In this document: positions 2,554 to 39,086 of the stretch, one piece after another
How positions within the stretch are numbered: position 1 is the first letter of the stretch
Layout: every line of letters starts with the position of its first letter
Sequence record: PP328843.1
Reading direction: 5' to 3' (one strand)
DNA: 64,000 nucleotides
Source: Escherichia phage 215Ecol030PP
Translations under genes and position numbers: made by a program
The notes under the pieces: generated by a model
Database searches by the model: none
What the model was told of the DNA's origin: nothing
The model's input: the letters and a program-made list of their open reading frames with translations, nothing else

Positions 2554-3837
2554 ATGGCTAAAATCAACGAACTTCTGCGCGAATCAACCACAACGAATAG
2601 CAACTCAATCGGTCGCCCAAATCTCGTTGCTTTGACTCGCGCTACCACTAAATTAATATATTCTGACATTGTAGCAACGCAAAGAACTAATCAACCTGTT
2701 GCTGCTTTTTATGGTATCAAATACCTTAACCCAGACAATGAATTTACATTTAAAACTGGTGCTACTTACGCTGGCGAAGCCGGATATGTAGACCGAGAAC
2801 AAATCACAGAATTAACAGAAGAGTCTAAATTAACTCTCAATAAAGGCGATTTATTCAAATATAATAATATCGTTTATAAAGTATTAGAAGATACACCATT
2901 TGCTGATATTGAAGAAAGCGATTTAGAATTAGCTCTTCAGATTGCAATCGTTCTTTTAAAGGTTCGTCTATTTTCTGATGCTGCAGTAACAAGCAAATTT
3001 GAAAACTCTGATAGCGAAATTGCGGATGCTAGATTCCAGATTAATAAATGGCAAACCGCAGTTAAATCTCGTAAACTTAAAACTGGCATCACAGTTGAAT
3101 TAGCACAAGATTTAGAAGCAAACGGATTCGATGCTCCTAATTTCTTGGAAGATTTGCTTGCAACTGAAATGGCGGATGAAATCAATAAAGATATTCTGCA
3201 GTCTTTGATTACAGTATCAAAACGCTATAAAGTTACAGGAATTACTGATACTGGATTCATTGATTTGAGTTATGCATCTGCACCTGAAGCTGGTCGTTCA
3301 TTATACCGAATGGTATGTGAAATGGTTTCACATATCCAGAAAGAATCAACTTATACAGCAACGTTCTGTGTTGCTTCAGCTCGTGCCGCTGCGATTCTTG
3401 CTGCATCAGGTTGGTTAAAACATAAACCAGAAGATGACAAATATCTTTCACAAAATGCCTACGGGTTCTTAGCTAATGGTTTACCGCTTTATTGCGATAC
3501 CAACAGTCCATTAGATTATGTAATCGTTGGCGTAGTAGAAAATATTGGTGAAAAAGAAATTGTTGGATCAATTTTCTATGCTCCGTATACAGAAGGTCTT
3601 GACTTAGATGACCCTGAACATGTAGGTGCATTTAAAGTTGTAGTTGATCCAGAAAGTTTGCAGCCATCTATCGGTTTATTAGTTAGATATGCTTTATCTG
3701 CAAATCCTTACACTGTAGCAAAAGATGAAAAAGAAGCAAGAATAATTGATGGTGGAGACATGGATAAAATGGCGGGTCGTTCAGATTTGTCTGTTTTATT
3801 AGGTGTTAAGCTACCAAAAATTATTGTTGATGAATAA
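2554..3837 (+). CDS. 24: Capsid vertex protein gp24
   Basis: 427 aa, paralogous to gp23 in the ORF translation; T4 gp24 length and position. Confidence 0.92.
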   Translation: MAKINELLRESTTTNSNSIGRPNLVALTRATTKLIYSDIVATQRTNQPVAAFYGIKYLNPDNEFTFKTGATYAGEAGYVDREQITELTEESKLTLNKGDLFKYNNIVYKVLEDTPFADIEESDLELALQIAIVLLKVRLFSDAAVTSKFENSDSEIADARFQINKWQTAVKSRKLKTGITVELAQDLEANGFDAPNFLEDLLATEMADEINKDILQSLITVSKRYKVTGITDTGFIDLSYASAPEAGRSLYRMVCEMVSHIQKESTYTATFCVASARAAAILAASGWLKHKPEDDKYLSQNAYGFLANGLPLYCDTNSPLDYVIVGVVENIGEKEIVGSIFYAPYTEGLDLDDPEHVGAFKVVVDPESLQPSIGLLVRYALSANPYTVAKDEKEARIIDGGDMDKMAGRSDLSVLLGVKLPKIIVDE

Positions 3838-3843
3838 AACAAA

Positions 3844-3859
3844 GGGACCTTTCGGTCCC
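3844..3859. terminator. Hairpin between convergent genes 24 and rnlB (likely bidirectional terminator)
   Basis: GGGACC..GGTCCC inverted repeat flanked by A-run and T-run. Confidence 0.5.
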
Positions 3860-3866
3860 TTTTTAT

Positions 3867-4871
3867 TTAGCTCACCAATTCAATCCAAGCCGGACGAAGT
3901 ACATCTTGCACCATTTTAACTAATTCCTTTTTAATCAAAGAAGGATTATCTGCTTGAGTTAAAGTAATACCTTCACGAGAAGTTTCTTCCAAAATATCTT
4001 GAACAGTTAGTCCCATCACCTTTCCAAAATCTTTAGGACCAATTTCACCAATTTTAGAAATAACGTTATTTACTCGGTTCAGTGTAACGTAACAAGCTAA
4101 AATTCCAACCAATTTGTTATCAGCTTCTGACAGTTCAACTTTAGCTTTAATAGGCTTATCAGACTTTTTCTTTTCACTAAATTTAGAGTTCTTGCATTTG
4201 ATAGCTACGCGATTGCCATTAGGCATCCAAGAAGGATAACAAGGTTTCAATACATATCCTTCAGCGGTAAATACTTCGCCTTTTACTTCAGCATTCCAAA
4301 CGCATTTATTTGCATCAACTAATCCAGCATGGTCTACCGTAAAATTATAATCCTGGACGACAGAATCTAAATCATTTGGCAATTTAATAAGTTCTTCAAA
4401 TTTACCGCGACCTAAAAGTGGAGCCATTTTAAATTTAAATGTATTGCAGAATGATTCCATCATATAATCATCGACATAAGTCACATCACCACTTTCTGTA
4501 GTAACAATAATGTCAAATACATAAAAATCTTTATCGCCATAATCGACATTCTTCTGAATGCCAGGTCCAGCGAATTCGCCAAAAACTTGATAAGATACAA
4601 CCGCTGAAGTTTCCATAATATCTTGTACTGCTTTAATGGAATCAGCGTAATTCTTCAAAATAATTTCATACCCAAAGAAATCTTCAGCAGGAAGAATAGG
4701 ACCAGTACGTTTAGCACAAGTTGCTTTATCGCGTTCAATAATCAGTGAGAAATTTGTGCCATGAATCTTTTCACGAGCTACCCATTCGCCGCCAGTCAAT
4801 CCTAAACTATAAAGTTTTTCAATGAATTTAGAATTGTAATGATTTTCAAGACTGCTATACTTTTTAAACAT
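3867..4871 (-). CDS. rnlB: RNA ligase 2 (Rnl2)
   Basis: 334 aa; sequence recognised as T4 Rnl2 including the nucleotidyltransferase lysine motif (EKIHGTN). Confidence 0.92.
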
Positions 4872-18385: not shown

Positions 18386-20443
18386 TTATCCTTGAACGAA
18401 CTTGTAAGGCATGTTTGCAATATCTATGCAAGACGCAATAATTCCAAGAGATGATTCTACTTTCTGTTTAACATTTGATGAAACAAATGATGCAAAGTCA
18501 ACTCTGTCTTCTATTTCAATATCACCTGTCATTGCAACTACTTCACCGGTTTCCATTAAACGGTCTCCGTCATAAATTACCGATTCGGTGAGTTCTTCTG
18601 TGGTCATAACTTCAGCTTGAATAAGCTTGTTGTTAGTTCTAACTGTTCCATCGTTGTAAGATGCATCGGTTATTTTATTAACTTTGACCATTAATCCACG
18701 TGGCAAAATGACTTCCATTTCATTTGAAGGCGCTAAACTTCCACCAGGTAAAACAACATTGACCTTATCAGCCCCAGTAATAACCCATCCAATTCCAACT
18801 AAATTATCGCTAGAATTTACTAGTCCTTCATCAGTTTTATCAATAGAAACACTTAGACGTTTTTCGTCTGGTAAAACACCTATAGATGAATCAGTCATCC
18901 AAGTACCAAAAATATTTGGATATAATGATGTTGACACAAAGTTTCTAAAATAAAAAACTCGATTTTTTACCATTGCTTCATATATTGAAGGTAACATTCG
19001 TTGTGAACGATACAAAGTAATACCTTTTGGTAATCGTTCACCATTTTTAAAGGCTGAATCTAAATTATCAATGGCTTGTTCTATTTCAGGTGCTGTTAAA
19101 ATACTTGTACGCTCATCTGGATTATATAATCCCAAAAGAGCATTATTTATGTCTACATATCCTGAACCTACATATTCACGAATTCCGCGTTTTTGCGCTG
19201 GCGTGTATTTAGATGAATCTTTATTTTCGACTATAGGATGTAATGACCATCCAGCGGTAAGAGCATATCCACGTAATTCTCTTCGAATAATCTTTGTTTT
19301 TATTGCATTCCAAGAATTTTGTACTAACTCATTTGCAGCATCTTGGTTTAAATGCGAATGTCTGTTAATATTTCTTTCAAACCAGGCACCTTTATATTTT
19401 TCTAAAGTATCATCGACGATAGAAGCAATAGTTTCTAAAGTTTTTATTGAAGTAATAGATTCTTTTCGTAATTTTTCTAAAGCTTTATTTTTTATTTCTG
19501 CATTAATAATGGATTCTTTATCTTCAGGAATTATAGAAGCTTCTCTGAATGCCATCCCAGCTGTAACACTGCTAAGAGCATTCTCTAGTGCAAATCCTGA
19601 AGTAGAAATTACCGTTAATTCATTAGAATCAGAAATTAAAGGCGCGTCCGCTGGTTTATTTAATTCTGCCGCTGAAGCCTCAAATTTTTGAAACATCGGT
19701 GTTTCAAATCTAGAAGATTCCAATGATTGACTTTGTGCAATTGCTCTACGGGAAATTTTAACTTTAACGATTACAGCTTGGTCAGAACGTTTATCATTTT
19801 CTTGTGCAATAGATGCTGCAATTGCCTCATTTTTAGTTACTTGAGCTCCAGTATCTTTATTGATATAAACATCACCGACCTTCGATTCAACCTTAGTAAA
19901 GAGCTCGGTACTAATTTCCGGAACTCCTGGAATGTCTTCTAGTGATACATTTTTGCGATGTATAAGAATATATGCATACTTTTTATCATAATCCCAGAGT
20001 TCCTTAAGAAGGACGTATCTGCCACCTGAACGACTACGGATAAGTCTATCAGCAATAACTTGAATTTGTCGAGCTTGACCAGCAGTTTTAGACTTAAGAA
20101 TACGAAGCATACAGGCATCAATTTTATACTGACGCATCGTCTGCATTGCAACAGTAAAAACTGAATTGATATAATTAATTGGGCTTGGACCAAGACCTTT
20201 CAATTTAGCAATTGAACCTTTAGCGGTTAATGTAAAAGGAACAATATGCATCATTTTATCGCCCATCTTTAAATCACGATTAGTGTCACCTCCAGATGTA
20301 TAGGTACATAAACGAAAGCCTGGTTGTTCAATTGCATCATCAACATGAACTGAAAAAATTTGCGGTATTTTCTTCTTTGGATTTAAGTTTGTAATCGGAA
20401 GAGTAGTATCTTCGTCAAATAATTCTGTAATTAGTTCCATCAT
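18386..20443 (-). CDS. alt: Alt, head-packaged ADP-ribosyltransferase
   Basis: 685 aa; T4 Alt length and position between 54 and 30. Confidence 0.88.
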   Translation of the reverse strand: MMELITELFDEDTTLPITNLNPKKKIPQIFSVHVDDAIEQPGFRLCTYTSGGDTNRDLKMGDKMMHIVPFTLTAKGSIAKLKGLGPSPINYINSVFTVAMQTMRQYKIDACMLRILKSKTAGQARQIQVIADRLIRSRSGGRYVLLKELWDYDKKYAYILIHRKNVSLEDIPGVPEISTELFTKVESKVGDVYINKDTGAQVTKNEAIAASIAQENDKRSDQAVIVKVKISRRAIAQSQSLESSRFETPMFQKFEASAAELNKPADAPLISDSNELTVISTSGFALENALSSVTAGMAFREASIIPEDKESIINAEIKNKALEKLRKESITSIKTLETIASIVDDTLEKYKGAWFERNINRHSHLNQDAANELVQNSWNAIKTKIIRRELRGYALTAGWSLHPIVENKDSSKYTPAQKRGIREYVGSGYVDINNALLGLYNPDERTSILTAPEIEQAIDNLDSAFKNGERLPKGITLYRSQRMLPSIYEAMVKNRVFYFRNFVSTSLYPNIFGTWMTDSSIGVLPDEKRLSVSIDKTDEGLVNSSDNLVGIGWVITGADKVNVVLPGGSLAPSNEMEVILPRGLMVKVNKITDASYNDGTVRTNNKLIQAEVMTTEELTESVIYDGDRLMETGEVVAMTGDIEIEDRVDFASFVSSNVKQKVESSLGIIASCIDIANMPYKFVQG

Positions 20444-20463
20444 ATCCTCTCTATTGTTTATTC

Positions 20464-20471
20464 TATTTATA
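20464..20471 (-). promoter_or_regulatory. T4-type late promoter (TATAAATA) upstream of alt
   Basis: Minus-strand TATAAATA about 20 nt upstream of the alt start. Confidence 0.5.
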
Positions 20472-20492
20472 AAATTAAAGGCCCGAAGGCCT

Positions 20493-20681
20493 TTAATAAT
20501 CTAGTGGTAAGAGAGTACGGTATATTTCAAACTTTGGACCTTTTTCATAGGCATCAAATGTTTCTGTGAATTTATTATAAGCATATGCATCTACAAATTC
20601 GAGAATGACTTGTGATACAGAAGTAGAAACATCTCCACCTTCTTTTTGAGCAATGACAATTGTTTCTAAGTAAGCTTTCAT
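20493..20681 (-). CDS. Hypothetical 62-aa protein between gene 30 and alt
   Basis: ORF overlapping the gene 30 stop (ATGA) and ending in a terminator-like hairpin. Confidence 0.5.
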   Translation of the reverse strand: MKAYLETIVIAQKEGGDVSTSVSQVILEFVDAYAYNKFTETFDAYEKGPKFEIYRTLLPLDY

Positions 20682-22141
20682 AGACCAGTTACCTCATGAA
20701 AATCACCAAATACATCTTCGAACGTATTAGCTTTAGTTTTATCTTCGCGTAAACGAATCGCAATCGGAAGAAATAATTTAACGTAATCAGTGCGGCCATC
20801 AGATTTTAACCAACCGTTGCATTCGCACTCTAGAATTTTTCCAATATAATAATTTTGGTTTTCCATAATGCGAGTACGGTCAAGTTCATGCGATTTTACA
20901 CCGGCTTTATCTTTTAAGCCTGAACCAGCATTTACTTTAATTTTTCCACACTCTGATTCAAGAATAAATCCACCTGCTTTAGTAGGGTCTTTACGGTGAG
21001 GATAAATTCCTACAATTTTTAAATCAACATCAATTACTTCTTTAAATTTATAGAGATTTTTTGAACGAGCATTTTCCCATAATCCATCGATATTTTTGAG
21101 AATAATACCTTCAAGACCTTGGTCAATATACTTTTTATAAATTACCTTAGCTTCATCTAGGTTATTTACTACTTGGTTTTCAATTAAAATTACTTTATCA
21201 TAGCCTGATGTCATTTGTTCTAGTTTAGAAAAACGTACATCATATTTCAAACGAAATGCAGGAAGACCGTATATTTCTACCAACGGAACATAGTCCCAGA
21301 CCTGAAACTTCATGCATTGAGCTTCTTTTTCAGAAATGGTTCCCTTTAAAGATTTATTAGCGATTCCATTAGAAGTAGTACGTGATTCAGCTACTTCGGC
21401 GAATTCTTTGGCTTTACTAATTTCAGGATAAGCATCAAAAAGAAAATCTAGGCCTTCTGGCTCCTTTTTAACTTGCTCATGGTATACCAATTCGCCATCA
21501 ATTAACACGCCTTCTGGATGAATCTGGCGGGCTTCAGCGGTCATTTTGATTAATTCTTCCTTAAGAAGATCTAATCCTAGATATTCATTACCGGCTCGTG
21601 ATAAAAGACGAACATCATCTAATTCATCACCTCTGACTTCGGCAAAGCACCGAGCTCCATCAGCTTTTAACTGGGCAAAGGCTGGAAATTTGATATTCTT
21701 ATTAATGCCTTTTTCATCATAAGAACTTGCAAGCATTTGAGGTTGTTCAGGAATTAAACCTGGCCAAACTTTGTTTGCAATAGATACCGAAGCACCGCAT
21801 TCAAGGTCTCGCATCATCACTCGACGCAAAACTTCAACATCATCTTTTTTACCATCGGTGATGTATCCAGTTAATTCCTCAATTGCCGCATTTCCAGTCA
21901 ATTTCCGAGTAGCTAACGTGAATTCAATGAAGTCAAGCATATCGGTAAGAGTCAACATTCCAAAACTCTGGGTAGCAATACCAGGTTTAGGCCATTTCTT
22001 GATATAATACTGCAACCCACGAGAATAAGTCAGACGATATACTCGTTTAAGCAATTCATTATCTTTATTCTTTTCAAGAATTGCTTGCTTCTGCTTAGTT
22101 GAACCAATAGATGCTATTTCGTTCAGAATTTTAAGAATCAT
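20678..22141 (-). CDS. 30: ATP-dependent DNA ligase
   Basis: 487 aa; sequence recognised as T4 DNA ligase (KADGAR adenylation motif present). Confidence 0.95.
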   Translation of the reverse strand: MILKILNEIASIGSTKQKQAILEKNKDNELLKRVYRLTYSRGLQYYIKKWPKPGIATQSFGMLTLTDMLDFIEFTLATRKLTGNAAIEELTGYITDGKKDDVEVLRRVMMRDLECGASVSIANKVWPGLIPEQPQMLASSYDEKGINKNIKFPAFAQLKADGARCFAEVRGDELDDVRLLSRAGNEYLGLDLLKEELIKMTAEARQIHPEGVLIDGELVYHEQVKKEPEGLDFLFDAYPEISKAKEFAEVAESRTTSNGIANKSLKGTISEKEAQCMKFQVWDYVPLVEIYGLPAFRLKYDVRFSKLEQMTSGYDKVILIENQVVNNLDEAKVIYKKYIDQGLEGIILKNIDGLWENARSKNLYKFKEVIDVDLKIVGIYPHRKDPTKAGGFILESECGKIKVNAGSGLKDKAGVKSHELDRTRIMENQNYYIGKILECECNGWLKSDGRTDYVKLFLPIAIRLREDKTKANTFEDVFGDFHEVTGL

Positions 22142-22407
22142 TGTTCATCCTTCAGAGTTTGGTTTACAGCTCTATTATAAATCAATTCATCATTAAGCTC
22201 AGTCAAAGACTTATGATATGTGGTTCTAACTTTATTTCCTTGCATCCAGTGCTTGACGTAAATGAAACCTTGCTCTACACATTTTTTAAAAATTCGTTCG
22301 TCTTTTTGAGCTCGGAATTCTGGATTGCATCTAAAAAATTGATTTACGTGACCGTAATCACGTGTAGTATTACCTTCATTTTCATAAATGGTATGAACAA
22401 CAAACAT
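22138..22407 (-). CDS. Hypothetical protein (30.1 position)
   Basis: 89-aa ORF overlapping the gene 30 start. Confidence 0.55.
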   Translation of the reverse strand: MFVVHTIYENEGNTTRDYGHVNQFFRCNPEFRAQKDERIFKKCVEQGFIYVKHWMQGNKVRTTYHKSLTELNDELIYNRAVNQTLKDEQ

Positions 22408-23246
22408 TAGAATGCTCCTTGGAAAATATTATCACCACTAGTAGGTCTATTATACAAATACTCTATGCCACCAGGTTTAATATAGTTCCATGTCTGAAAC
22501 GGATGTGTCTGATATGGATGATATAGATGATTATAAGGATTAAATCCAGGAGTTCTCCAGGTAGTGTTCCAAGGAAAAGAATCGTTTTTGATCATCTTCT
22601 CAATTACATCTTTTATAACTTTTTCACTATCAAAACTTTCTTTATTTTCCTTCGATGGAAAAAGCTTATTCTCTACATCATTCCATGTATAAACTCGCTG
22701 AGCAGTTTTTGGAATATTGTCACGTTCTCCTCGAGCCATCCAATAAACCGGAACATTTAATATTTCACTCGCGTGGTCGCAGTGGTGAGCGAGATCGTCA
22801 ATATAACAAATTACGTTATATTTCTCTTTTGCCTTTTTAAACAACTCTTCTTTTGAAGAATCATGACCACACATCATTACTTCTGAGAAGGCACCAGGAA
22901 AAAGAGCATTCAAATTAAATTGACGATTTAATAGAGCGTCAATAGAATCACCCAGCGCTGTAACAGCTACAAAATTATAATCTTCTTTTAATTTGTTAAT
23001 TACACACAGAGCATCTTTATATGGAGACAAGTAACGAATAAAATCTGAACGATTGTATTTTTCAATTAACTTGACGCCAAGTTCTTCGTCACAATTAAAA
23101 AGTTTACCAGGAGAAATAAATTTTTCATCTTGGATCATTTTTAAAATATGTTCCAATGGAAGATTATATTTCTGGGCAAAATAAGGAAGACCCGATTGCC
23201 AGCTTAAACATACTCCATCAATATCAGTTAAAATAGTAGGCTTCAT
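22407..23246 (-). CDS. HAD-superfamily-like hydrolase (30.2 position)
   Basis: 279 aa; N-terminal LTDIDGV resembles HAD motif I (DxDG). Confidence 0.55.
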   Translation of the reverse strand: MKPTILTDIDGVCLSWQSGLPYFAQKYNLPLEHILKMIQDEKFISPGKLFNCDEELGVKLIEKYNRSDFIRYLSPYKDALCVINKLKEDYNFVAVTALGDSIDALLNRQFNLNALFPGAFSEVMMCGHDSSKEELFKKAKEKYNVICYIDDLAHHCDHASEILNVPVYWMARGERDNIPKTAQRVYTWNDVENKLFPSKENKESFDSEKVIKDVIEKMIKNDSFPWNTTWRTPGFNPYNHLYHPYQTHPFQTWNYIKPGGIEYLYNRPTSGDNIFQGAF

Positions 23247-23707
23247 AGAGAGTCTCTTAATAGGTTTAACACATCAATAAATTCAGCTTCGGTTAGTATT
23301 GTATCATCTTTTGTTAGACCACTAGCCATGCTGTGCTTCAAAACTTTTCCTTTCGAGGCTTGTAATGCATCACGAAATCCCTTGTTTTGGATCGCTGCTT
23401 CAAAATATGCATTTGTGTATAATTCTTTCCACGCCGGGGAGTATCTTGAAAACGGAACTCCAAGCCAAAAGAGGGTCCCGCGGTCCTGAGCTCTTGCATA
23501 AGACCTTCCAGCTTGTTGGGCGGCAAGCCCGGATAACCCAAATATACGACGTTGTTGTTCAACGTTTTTCACCTTACACCCTTGGAGGAATCCTTCGAGA
23601 CCTCCAAATTGGATACCATCCATAACGAAAGGCCATTGGGCGAAATTGCTTAATGCACATGATGGCCATCTAAAATTGCTTCTTATCTCTAGCTCAGGCA
23701 TTTTCAA
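23243..23707 (-). CDS. NADAR/YbiA-family protein (30.3 position)
   Basis: 154 aa; SNFAQWPFVMDG...GLEGFLQGCK resembles the YbiA/NADAR signature. Confidence 0.6.
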   Translation of the reverse strand: MKMPELEIRSNFRWPSCALSNFAQWPFVMDGIQFGGLEGFLQGCKVKNVEQQRRIFGLSGLAAQQAGRSYARAQDRGTLFWLGVPFSRYSPAWKELYTNAYFEAAIQNKGFRDALQASKGKVLKHSMASGLTKDDTILTEAEFIDVLNLLRDSL

Positions 23708-23900
23708 TACTTATAATTTCAACATCAGCCCAATGACCATAGCAAGGAAGACGAAATTCAACTGGCCAGTTAGGGTCCTTTTCTAATATAATAGACTTAA
23801 CTTGTGGTTCTTCATGTTCATCGGTATACGGACCTTTATACGTTACTTTATATGTGACCTTAATGTACTGAATTCCAAAAATCTTATTAATTATATTCAT
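23694..23900 (-). CDS. Hypothetical protein
   Basis: 68-aa ORF in a tightly packed early gene array. Confidence 0.45.
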   Translation of the reverse strand: MNIINKIFGIQYIKVTYKVTYKGPYTDEHEEPQVKSIILEKDPNWPVEFRLPCYGHWADVEIISIENA

Positions 23901-24094
23901 ACTAATTCCTTTAATCCATAGATAGGAGATAATTCATCACCCATACGAAGGTCTTCATTTCCATCTACCCAGGAAACAATATAAGCCTCTTTTATTTGAA
24001 CGTCTCTCCATTTAAATGCAGGCAAAACCTTAGAAATTAATCCAGGTATACCGACTCCCTTTAATTCAACAGTTTGACCCAAAAAGAATTTCAT
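23897..24094 (-). CDS. Hypothetical protein
   Basis: 65-aa ORF overlapping neighbours. Confidence 0.45.
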   Translation of the reverse strand: MKFFLGQTVELKGVGIPGLISKVLPAFKWRDVQIKEAYIVSWVDGNEDLRMGDELSPIYGLKELV

Positions 24095-24381
24095 TAGAAC
24101 CTCATCTGAAATCCGTGCGATTTAACATTACCACCACCAATGTCAGAAATATTAATTTCACGCGCAATTGAAGGGTCAATGTCAATTTCACGATTGAGTT
24201 TAATGATTGCTAGAGTATCACGTCCATTTACAGTACGGAACTCTAAAGGACATACTACATTAACGTAGTTTTTAATCGATTCACTGGTAGGTTGCAAATG
24301 AGCAGGAAGGCCTTTAGGCGCCTTTGAGAAAACCACTTCACAGAAATTTTTACGGGTATCAAAATAAGTAGTCATAAACAT
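24094..24381 (-). CDS. Hypothetical protein
   Basis: 95-aa ORF with a GAGGA-type SD upstream. Confidence 0.5.
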   Translation of the reverse strand: MFMTTYFDTRKNFCEVVFSKAPKGLPAHLQPTSESIKNYVNVVCPLEFRTVNGRDTLAIIKLNREIDIDPSIAREINISDIGGGNVKSHGFQMRF

Positions 24382-24422
24382 AGTATTTTCCTCAGTAAGG
24401 GGCCGAAGCCCCTCATTTATTT

Positions 24423-24788
24423 TTAAATATCAAATTCGTTAAGAACTACATCAAAGATTGCTTCAAGATGCTCAGGTTTAGCTCTGTTACTCAGAATATG
24501 ACGAATCCAAGTTTTAACCAGAAGCTTGCGATTAACGCCATTCCAACAAGGATGAGTACCTAAATCACGTTGACGGAAATCATCATCTAATGCGATTTTA
24601 AAGGAAGAACCTTCTTTCGTGATTGAAACCGTGATGCCATTTTCAAATCGCATATAAACGTAGTTAGGAGTCATATACTGTTCAATTTCGCATACTGATC
24701 CATTTTGATGTTTCCAAAGGCAGATAGTATCAATAGAACCTGCAATACCATTAGAAACATATTTACGTTCAAAGTTGATGTAGTTCAT
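24423..24788 (-). CDS. Hypothetical protein
   Basis: 121-aa ORF with GGAGAATAAAA ATG context, driven by the early promoter at 24826-24854. Confidence 0.55.
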   Translation of the reverse strand: MNYINFERKYVSNGIAGSIDTICLWKHQNGSVCEIEQYMTPNYVYMRFENGITVSITKEGSSFKIALDDDFRQRDLGTHPCWNGVNRKLLVKTWIRHILSNRAKPEHLEAIFDVVLNEFDI

Positions 24789-24825
24789 TTTTATTCTCCG
24801 AGATGTTTAATTGCGGTACAGGTAT

Positions 24826-24854
24826 ATAATATCATATCCTGTACCAAAGTAAAC
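24826..24854 (-). promoter_or_regulatory. T4-type early promoter (GTTTAC, 17 nt, TATTAT)
   Basis: Minus-strand consensus hexamers with 17-nt spacer. Confidence 0.55.
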
Positions 24855-24856
24855 AA

Positions 24857-25189
24857 TTATTTTACTACTTTCCAATGCTGCATGTCAAGTTTACCAACTT
24901 TTTTCATCTTCTCAATCAAACGTTCGGCACGTTGACGGGCTGTAACATAATACCATTCACCTAATTCATTTTGTTCAATTTTTCCAACGATTACTGTATT
25001 CAATTCATAAATCCAACCAGTAAAGAAATTATGAACTTGAATTGTAAAGGTGAAATCTGTTCCCATACCTTCTGTTGTTTCTACTTCAATAATATCACCT
25101 TCAACTGCCATTAAGAACCACATAGTTTCATCATATTTACCATTGAAGCATTTAGTTTTAACTGCAGCGTTCAGATTAATCGTTTTCAT
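24857..25189 (-). CDS. Hypothetical protein
   Basis: 110-aa ORF with AAGGAGAATAAA ATG context. Confidence 0.55.
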   Translation of the reverse strand: MKTINLNAAVKTKCFNGKYDETMWFLMAVEGDIIEVETTEGMGTDFTFTIQVHNFFTGWIYELNTVIVGKIEQNELGEWYYVTARQRAERLIEKMKKVGKLDMQHWKVVK

Positions 25190-25216
25190 TTTATTCTCCT
25201 TTGTTTGTGTAAGATA

Positions 25217-25246
25217 ATACTATCACAAAGGAACCATACTGTAAAC
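25217..25246 (-). promoter_or_regulatory. T4-type early promoter (GTTTAC, 18 nt, TAGTAT)
   Basis: Minus-strand hexamers upstream of ORF 24857-25189. Confidence 0.5.
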
Positions 25247-25299
25247 AACTTTATGCAATCTTTGGAAAATAAAAAAGGACTCCCGAAGGAGTCCTCAAC

Positions 25300-25518
25300 T
25301 TATGCTTTCTGCTTACCAAAACGAGAAGCATCATCTCGAAGAACCGCACGTGCTCGGCGCATGATCTTCTCAACAGTTTGATTGATACGAGAGTTCGACC
25401 CACGCTTGTAGCCAGCGCGTTTAGAATCACCAACTTTCTTTTCAACTGCTTTCTTTGCTTTAGCTTGTTTTGCCATTATAAATTCTCTTTTAAATGAAAA
25501 TGCAGGACTTATTGGCAT
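25300..25518 (-). CDS. Small basic Lys/Arg-rich protein (30.9 position)
   Basis: 72-aa ORF (58 aa from the internal MAKQAKAKK start) followed by a hairpin terminator at about 25266-25290. Confidence 0.5.
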   Translation of the reverse strand: MPISPAFSFKREFIMAKQAKAKKAVEKKVGDSKRAGYKRGSNSRINQTVEKIMRRARAVLRDDASRFGKQKA

Positions 25519-25720
25519 TGCCTGCGCAAGCCCTCAAGGGGAACATAGGTTTTTGGATATTTAACGACCAGGATAACCATAAACCCGTCATCATTCACAT
25601 TCAAGAGGTACACCGTAAAACTGCCGGGGTCTTAAAACTATAATGATTCGCAAATCATTAATCAGACAGTTCGACGGCTCCTCGATTTAGCTCACACTAA
25701 GGCAGTGAATCTCCAATAAA

Positions 25721-25969
25721 TTACTTCAATGTTACCACAAAGTGACGAACTGCTTTTCGCGCAGCAGAAGCCAAAGGCTTAGCATATTTAAGTTCATCTT
25801 TTTCCTGAAGCTCAGCAGCTAATGCAGTTTGAGCAGGATTCAGATGTTTGAAATAACGCAGGATTTCAAGAGCTTCGGCTTCAACATCAATAGATGCGCC
25901 ATAGTTTTCGTGACCATTATTCCATGCGTTTCGTTGCAGTTCAAGAGCGTGTTGTAATTGTTTAATCAT
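25721..25969 (-). CDS. rIII: rIII lysis-inhibition accessory protein
   Basis: 82 aa, located just downstream of gene 31 as in T4. Confidence 0.7.
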   Translation of the reverse strand: MIKQLQHALELQRNAWNNGHENYGASIDVEAEALEILRYFKHLNPAQTALAAELQEKDELKYAKPLASAARKAVRHFVVTLK

Positions 25970-26116
25970 TTAAAAATTCTCGTTAGAGATTAAAACTCGG
26001 TAGTCACGTTCTTCTGAATTTCATCTTCTTTCGACAGATCTCTCAGTTGTAGACTACCACATAGAATTGTTCGGTTAACTTATTATTCCGACACCCAATT
26101 CATATTATTATTTATA

Positions 26117-26452
26117 TCACTTATAAAGACACGGAATAGCTTTATAGTGACAAGTAACGAATTTTTGTTTAATTTCTTTTGGCTGCTTAAGACCCAGAGC
26201 TACAAAAGGATGCGGAACATTTCGAATTTGACCAACTGGAAGAGAAGTCAAATCACCAACTTCGCAGAAACCTTCAGGAACATCAGGACCGACAGAGTGA
26301 ATTACACACAGTTCAGGAACTTCACCTTGAACACGTTTACCGATAATAAGTCCTGATTCTGTAACTTCTTCATCACCGGCTTGTGCAGGTTCAGAAACTA
26401 AAATAACATATTCACCGACAGCACGAATTGGTAGCTGTTGTACTTCAGACAT
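26117..26452 (-). CDS. 31: gp31 co-chaperonin (GroES analogue)
   Basis: 111 aa; sequence recognised as T4 gp31. Confidence 0.92.
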
Positions 26453-38134: not shown

Positions 38135-38396
38135 CATTATGTTCAGATAAGGTCGTTAATCTTATCCCGGAATTATATCCAGCTGCATGTCACCATGCAG
38201 AGCAGACTATATCTCCAACTTGTTAAAGCAAGTTGTCTATCGTTTCGAGTCACTTGACCCTACTCCCTAAAGGGATAGTCGTTAGGCATTTAGGTAGAAC
38301 CAAAGTCCTACAATTTAGCACGGGATTGTCTACTAGAGAGGTTCCCCGTTTAGATAGATTACAAGTATAAGTCACCTTATACTCAGGCCTCAATTA
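38135..38396 (-). mobile_element. Group I self-splicing intron in td, ORF-less (262 nt)
   Basis: The intron begins UAAUUGAGGCCUGAGUAUAAGGUGACUUAUAC... and ends ...CUGAACAUAAUG, which I recognise as the T4 td intron core; no I-TevI ORF is present. Confidence 0.8.
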
Positions 38397-39086
38397 ACCC
38401 AAGAAAACATCTACTGAGCGTTGATACCACTGCAAATCCAAATAGCCATTACGCACATTAAACTGATAGAACATATGACAAGGCGGTAATGCCATATATT
38501 TAAGTTCAGCTGGATTCCATGCAGAAACAATTTGACGCCTATCATTTGGCAATTTTTTAATACGATCAATAACTTCTACAATTTGGTCTACACCGCCAAA
38601 ATCACGCCATTGTTTTCCATAAATTGGACCAAGTTCACCGCTATGGTATCCTAAATCTTTTGCTTGATTTTCGTAATTTTCATCCCAGACTGTTTTGCCT
38701 TGAATTAATGAATCATGCTGAATTTGGTCTACACCGCCAAAATCACGCCATTGTTTTCCATAAATTGGACCAAGTTCACCGCTATGGTATCCTAAATCTT
38801 TTGCTTGATTTTCGTAATTTTCATCCCAGACTGTTTTGCCTTGAATTAATGAATCATGCTGAATTAATCGTAAATCATTTACGTTAGTACTTCCTGATAA
38901 GAACCAAAGTAGCTCAGCAATGCAAGCTTTCCAAGCGAGCTTCTTAGTTGTTACCGCAGGAAAACCTTTAGTTAAATCCCAGCGTAATTTAGTACCGAAC
39001 AAAGCAATTGTTCCTGTGCCTGTTCGGTCATCGGTTTCATAGCCATTTTCAAAAATGTCTTTAATTAAATCTTGGTATTGTTTCAT
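38397..39086 (-). CDS. td: Thymidylate synthase, exon 1 (contains an in-frame 47-codon tandem duplication)
   Basis: MKQYQDLIKDIFENGYETDDRTGTGT... with catalytic ALPPCHMF; the segment QHDSLIQ...GGVDQI occurs twice in a row. Confidence 0.88.
38580..38861. repeat. Perfect direct tandem duplication, 2 x 141 bp, inside td exon 1
   Basis: Positions 38580-38720 and 38721-38861 are identical by eye; junction microhomology ATT. Confidence 0.9.

Follow-up and report, generated by a model that had tools for sequence, protein, structure and literature searches.

The window analysed here, a 64,000-nucleotide stretch of DNA from Escherichia phage 215Ecol030PP (PP328843.1), carries on its minus strand at 23243..23701 a gene of 152 codons plus stop that corresponds to T4 gene 30.3, now named adfN. 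With high confidence, this gene is the T4 adfN orthologue and encodes a stand-alone NADAR N-glycosidase that undoes the ADP-ribosylation of guanine by the toxin DarT1 on phage DNA. The window itself shows an intact gene, 99% identity of its product to the T4 protein, a NADAR fold, and conserved catalytic residues; the presumed enzymatic activity and anti-DarTG1 phenotype are drawn from published experiments with the T4 protein. An earlier note on this DNA, written from the sequence alone, had proposed a counter-defense against DarT-like toxins through the removal of ADP-ribose from guanine in DNA. The activity has been shown for T4 gp30.3 (PMC11825919, PMC11125620), and the proposed role is supported by the published activity and phenotype of T4 AdfN together with the near identity of the two proteins.

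The window is that of a T4-like phage (Tequatrovirus). The 2.5 kb surrounding adfN show 96 to 97% identity to many Tequatrovirus genomes, and the genes follow the order known from T4: alt, alt.1, 30 (ligase), 30.1, 30.2, 30.3, 30.4 ... rIII, 31. The product aligns over its full length with T4 gp30.3 and is identical at 150 of 152 positions, the differences being S2P and I125M. At position 125, methionine is the consensus residue of the gp30.3 family in an alignment of 50 homologues, which is also the basis of the family profile, the hhalign comparison, and the AlphaFold2 model described below. Near identity, shared neighbors, and full length including the C-terminal helix make the gene the orthologue of T4 adfN. 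Homologues of gp30.3 are found by tblastn in 1510 phage records, ∼645 of them at an identity of at least 90% and ∼780 below 60%, the latter from Klebsiella, Aeromonas, Acinetobacter, Vibrio, and other phages; phage BW-1 encodes a protein identical to that of the window.

The protein belongs to the NADAR superfamily, with a YbiA-like fold, and within it to the phage gp30.3/AdfN subfamily. The placement in the subfamily follows from the match to PF08010 (Phage_30_3), the only Pfam family recognized and well above threshold (E = 2.4e-70, 235 bits versus a cut-off of 36), and from the histidine at the third catalytic position. In an hmmsearch, the profile of the 50 homologues finds YbiA of E. coli (2b3w) with an E value of 0.0019 across the N-terminal motifs. 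Alignment of the homologues with YbiA by hhalign pairs residues 16 to 122 with YbiA residues 27 to 124 at a probability of 94.4% (E = 8.7e-8). The AlphaFold2 model reaches a mean predicted local distance difference test (pLDDT) score of 94 and a predicted template modeling (pTM) score of 0.89, and NADAR membership is taken as settled by this structure prediction, which the earlier note had named as a check. The assignment to a NADAR/YbiA family made there stands at the level of the superfamily, given the hhalign result and the invariant E36 and K43. Judged by its sequence, the protein is not a member of the YbiA family in the strict sense, as the glutamate of the last strand is replaced by His123. 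The assignment of the family to NADAR dates to de Souza and Aravind 2012, as cited in PMC11543638 and PMC11125620. In PHROGs, the protein falls into phrog_652, labeled "unknown function."

Invariant across all 50 sequences are L17-S18-N19-F20, E36-G37-F38, Q40, K43, and H123. The LSNF segment (codons 17 to 20, 23642..23653; this and all following adfN features on the minus strand) is the N-terminal NADAR motif, FSNF in YbiA, aligned to YbiA residues 29 to 32 by hmmsearch and hhalign; just 16 residues precede it. This SNF motif precedes the E-x3-Q-x2-K motif, which lies in EGFLQGCK (codons 36 to 43, 23573..23596) and holds the catalytic Glu36 (codon 23594..23596) and Lys43 (codon 23573..23575). 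These two residues, with codons read from the sequence, are aligned to YbiA E48 and K55, and Q40 pairs with YbiA Q52. His123 (codon 23333..23335) marks the phage gp30.3 subfamily and is placed opposite YbiA E125 because the hhalign alignment stops one residue earlier (K122/V124); a change of the catalytic glutamate to histidine at this third position is described for phage NADARs (PMC11543638; PMC11125620). The C-terminal helix of the AlphaFold2 model (codons 138 to 151, 23249..23290) is intact. In T4 AdfN, the substitutions E36A and K43A and a C-terminal truncation each lower activity, and the RB69 allele is inactive through a frameshift that deletes its last 15 residues (PMC11825919). The window allele is full length, without a truncation of the RB69 type. 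Since no invariant residue is changed, the C-terminal helix is retained, and I125M represents the family consensus, the allele with S2P and I125M is predicted to be functional and to behave like T4 AdfN.

The ability of T-even phages to resist DarTG1 was mapped to gene 30.3, which was then renamed adfN (Johannesman et al., Nat Commun 2025, PMC11825919). According to that study, T4 and T2 fail to plaque on DarTG1 cells after deletion of adfN, expression of adfN rescues RB69, and purified wild-type AdfN strips ADP-ribose from DarT1-modified DNA, which the E36A variant does not. AdfN offers no counter to DarTG2, whose adducts are on thymidine (PMC11825919). T4 AdfN is reported as necessary and sufficient for T-even resistance to DarTG1 (PMC11825919; Toxins 2024; HIDEN-SEQ preprint), and transposon sequencing shows that insertions in 30.3/adfN are lost specifically on the DarTG1 host (HIDEN-SEQ preprint). 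T4 gp30.3 is active on ADP-ribosyl-guanine in vitro, yet it confers no protection on uninfected cells (Toxins 2024, PMC11125620). As an oddity, the same paper gives the T4 gp30.3 construct as "residues 1-208," and the gene encodes 152 amino acids. In the proposed mechanism, DarT1 would ADP-ribosylate guanine in the phage DNA upon infection of a host carrying DarTG1, and this modification would block phage replication. AdfN would then hydrolyze the bond between ADP-ribose and guanine, restoring the DNA and permitting the phage to replicate. Catalysis would rely on the E-x3-Q-x2-K motif, with its Glu36 and Lys43, and on His123 in the last strand.

Several observations weigh against this function for the window protein. 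The experimental data, as analyzed here, pertain to the T4 protein and not to the window allele or its phage. E36A and K43A lose rescue only partially, and AdfN(T4) neither neutralizes DarT1 in uninfected cells nor fully rescues non-T-even phages (PMC11825919). Full activity of AdfN(T4) only during T-even infection suggests an additional T-even phage partner. Direct searches with the window protein give no match to the Pfam NADAR model PF08719 at an E value of ≤1, no match in NCBIfam, no match for the protein itself in PADLOC, and a single chance-level match among PDB sequences by phmmer. In addition, no equivalents of D130 and W133, which bind ADP-ribose in PnNADAR, are assignable in the alignments made here. 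The link to NADAR emerged only through the family profile, hhalign, and structure, and the search with a NADAR profile suggested in the earlier note gives a divided result: PF08719 passes over the window protein and individually matches 20 of its 50 aligned relatives (best E = 1.5e-7).

Three alternative explanations are disfavored for the window orthologue by published biochemistry and genetics. Iyer, Burroughs and Aravind proposed on contextual grounds that phage NADARs act on soluble substrates (PMC9503650, 2022), and the position of the distant homologues of phages Mineola, L9-6, and RSP15 in tRNA clusters is compatible with an RNA-related role there. Soluble ADP-ribose derivatives, whether immune signals made from NAD or RNA-repair by-products, are nevertheless unlikely to be the main substrates of a protein that would then blunt signaling-type defenses, as the T4 protein directly de-ADP-ribosylates DNA and shows a clear DarTG1 phenotype (PMC11825919; HIDEN-SEQ preprint), and accessory genes in general tend to gather at tRNA regions.

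A role in regulating host takeover, through reversal of the ADP-ribosylation by the phage's own Alt, ModA, and ModB, could be imagined, as the leftward cluster of adfN also contains alt (18386..20443, 3 kb away) and T4-like NADARs are expressed early together with ADP-ribosyltransferases according to the 2022 survey (PMC9503650). The proximity of alt, however, is shared by T4-like phages as a piece of their conserved core gene order, characterized NADARs target N-glycosidic base adducts, and on E. coli K-12 the phage can do without adfN, which is essential only with DarTG1 (HIDEN-SEQ preprint), which leaves this role highly improbable. The residual rescue by E36A and K43A mentioned above could point to neutralization of DarT1 by binding, as in the case of AdfA, and YbiA as the closest sequence-detectable solved relative could point to a housekeeping enzyme like YbiA, an N-glycosidase acting on riboflavin intermediates. 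Either proposal has very little probability: a two-hybrid assay detected no association of AdfN with DarT1, DNA is freed from ADP-ribose by the wild type but not by E36A (PMC11825919), and His123 stands where YbiA has its defining glutamate. The repair of guanine adducts in phage DNA is the preferred function of the window protein.

The open reading frame given in the earlier note runs on the minus strand from a TTG at 23707 to 23243 (154 amino acids) and contains SNFAQWPFVMDG and GLEGFLQGCK. The frame with these quoted motifs is real, but its start has to be revised, most likely to the ATG at 23701, which shortens the gene by six bases to 23243..23701. The TTG at 23707 was rejected because the annotation of T4 gene 30.3 with an ATG start (NC_000866 128307..128765, 459 nucleotides, 152 amino acids) and the published residue numbering (E36, K43) agree on the ATG. 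Gene 30.3 overlaps both of its neighbors: its ATG shares bases with the stop codon of 30.4 upstream (ATGCCTGA), and its own stop codon shares bases with the 30.2 start (ATGA). Window adfN, a coding sequence for a phage-type NADAR ADP-ribosylglycohydrolase, differs from T4 30.3 at 13 nucleotides; 11 of these differences are synonymous and 2 are nonsynonymous, which indicates that the 30.3 frame is under purifying selection. A scan of 20400..26200 for promoters and terminators yields 23 and 4 sites, compared to 21.1 and 3.4 in shuffled sequence, and thus no excess.

The T4 annotation also contains an internal out-of-frame reading frame, 30.3', which corresponds to 23338..23562 on the minus strand of the window, inside adfN. 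The T4 ATG of 30.3' is ACG in the window, leaving a TTG as the sole start. Within 30.3', four nucleotides differ from T4, and each of these changes is nonsynonymous in the 30.3' frame and synonymous in the 30.3 frame, a pattern that speaks against 30.3' as a selected coding frame and thus as a gene. A PHROGs family exists for 30.3' (phrog_14037).

Gene 30.2 (22407..23246, minus strand) is translationally coupled to adfN. Its product comprises a 5'(3')-deoxyribonucleotidase-like domain of the HAD fold (residues 1 to ∼200), which bears out the HAD-like hydrolase noted earlier, and a variable C-terminal tail (residues ∼200 to 279). The tail is predicted to be disordered, with pLDDT values of <50 for residues 224 to 279, and both its length and its sequence change greatly from one homologue to the next; many homologues share a short GIEYL..QPT motif near the end. 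The DNA ligase (gene 30, 20678..22141), described in the earlier note as a neighbor of adfN, lies in the same region but is not directly adjacent, as 30.1 and 30.2 separate the two genes.

In Morganella phage Rgz1, Acinetobacter phage AB1I1M-1, and two Vibrio schizoT4 phages, the 30.3 homologue is directly followed by a HAD gene, that of Rgz1 showing 46% identity to 30.2. The adjacency of 30.3 and 30.2 was rejected as proof of a functional pair; it is weak evidence because RB43 and, inside tRNA gene clusters, Mineola, L9-6, and RSP15 have 30.3 at another site, and small open reading frames lie between 30.3 and a HAD-size gene in JC221 and LPCS28. The adjacency is instead attributed to the order of core genes near the ligase, which T4-like phages conserve. 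An action of 30.2, as a deoxyribonucleotidase-like phosphatase, together with AdfN, either as the missing T-even factor or as a processor of the released ADP-ribose or phospho-ribosyl remnant, is quite unlikely in view of this conserved order, the several lineages that part the two genes, and the DarTG1 transposon screen, which names adfN only (HIDEN-SEQ preprint). The homologues in tRNA clusters, away from a DNA ligase, are located at 3001..3450 in Klebsiella phage Mineola (locus L006), 3001..3450 in Aeromonas phage L9-6 (locus L004), and 3495..4013 in Ralstonia phage RSP15 (locus L002). This siting may reflect no more than a hot spot for accessory genes, or it may hint at an RNA-related substrate in these lineages. 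In Acinetobacter phage AB1I1M-1 (locus L005, 3592..4242), a 216-amino-acid protein labeled "DNA ligase" (P0180) shows homology to gp30.2, of the HAD type (E = 5e-52), and its label therefore appears to be wrong.

Apart from the adfN region, the thymidylate synthase gene td shows two peculiarities. Exon 1 forms an open reading frame of 230 amino acids on the minus strand (38394..39086), in which 38580..38865 is a perfect in-frame tandem duplication of 141 nucleotides or 47 codons (2.0 copies with a 100% match in Tandem Repeats Finder), so that the peptide IQHDSLIQGKTVWDENYENQAKDLGYHSGELGPIYGKQWRDFGGVDQ occurs twice. The five best database phages listed align with a 70-nucleotide probe spanning the junction of the two copies only in two pieces across 145 nucleotides and therefore lack the duplication, which could be a recent event or an assembly artifact. 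A group I intron at 38183..38406 on the minus strand (Rfam RF00028, 65.5 bits) is only ∼224 nucleotides long and thus lacks an open reading frame for a homing endonuclease. The close relatives RB3, NBG2, and PST have I-TevI in td; 1001 nucleotides of the window span 1614 nucleotides there, in three pieces.

The finding on adfN is already known. The family assignment was published in 2012, the biochemistry in 2023 to 2024, and the biology in 2025, and the window therefore adds nothing conceptually new. The phage is predicted to carry an intact enzymatic counter-defense against DarTG1 and, with its intact adfN, should in contrast to RB69 form plaques on E. coli that carries DarTG1. This is of use for annotation and for the prediction of host range and defense sensitivity of therapeutic T4-like phages. 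As a lesson for annotation, the Pfam NADAR model misses the gp30.3 subfamily, and many database records still state "hypothetical protein."

Among the known systems, T4 gp30.3 or AdfN (anti-DarT factor NADAR; PF08010) is the closest, with the same length, the residues E36, K43, and H123, an intact C-terminal helix, and a gene at the identical position between 30.4 and 30.2, upstream of the DNA ligase; the window protein differs by S2P and I125M, and the phage is not T4 itself, since the DNA around adfN reaches ∼97% identity to the best database phages. The antitoxin of DarTG1 is itself a NADAR, DarG1 (BC4488 family; PDB 8bat for the G. lovleyi NADAR). It is larger, with 219 amino acids compared to 152, and features an N-terminal DNA-binding extension and an aspartate at the third catalytic position. 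Its gene adjoins darT1, whereas that of the window adjoins 30.4 and 30.2, and T4 AdfN is unable to replace DarG1 in uninfected cells (PMC11825919). Without the extension, with its motif beginning at residue 17, with histidine rather than aspartate, and without an adjacent darT, the window protein is not a DarG1-type antitoxin. In PADLOC, the candidate-defense model PDC-M42C is matched by 34 of the 50 aligned homologues, the window protein not among them (best E = 3.4e-5), which suggests a NADAR-like component in an uncharacterized candidate defense system.

YbiA of E. coli (PDB 2b3w), the founding member of NADAR/DUF1768, shows ∼20% identity to the window protein. It carries E125, as does PnNADAR, at the position of His123, and its D130-x2-W133-G segment has no recognizable counterpart in the alignments made here. 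YbiA is an N-glycosidase of riboflavin intermediates and gives no protection from DarT1 in vivo (PMC11125620). AdfN(Bas32) and AdfN(Bas60) from T5-like phages and Vequintavirinae are likewise orphan phage NADARs that counter DarTG1 with specificity for guanine adducts, but they were acquired independently, belong to other NADAR clades, and work without T-even infection (PMC11825919). T4 encodes two further anti-DarTG factors that differ from AdfN in fold and mode of action: AdfA (61.2), which binds DarT1, and the macrodomain protein AdfM (tk.4), which targets the thymidine adducts of DarTG2.
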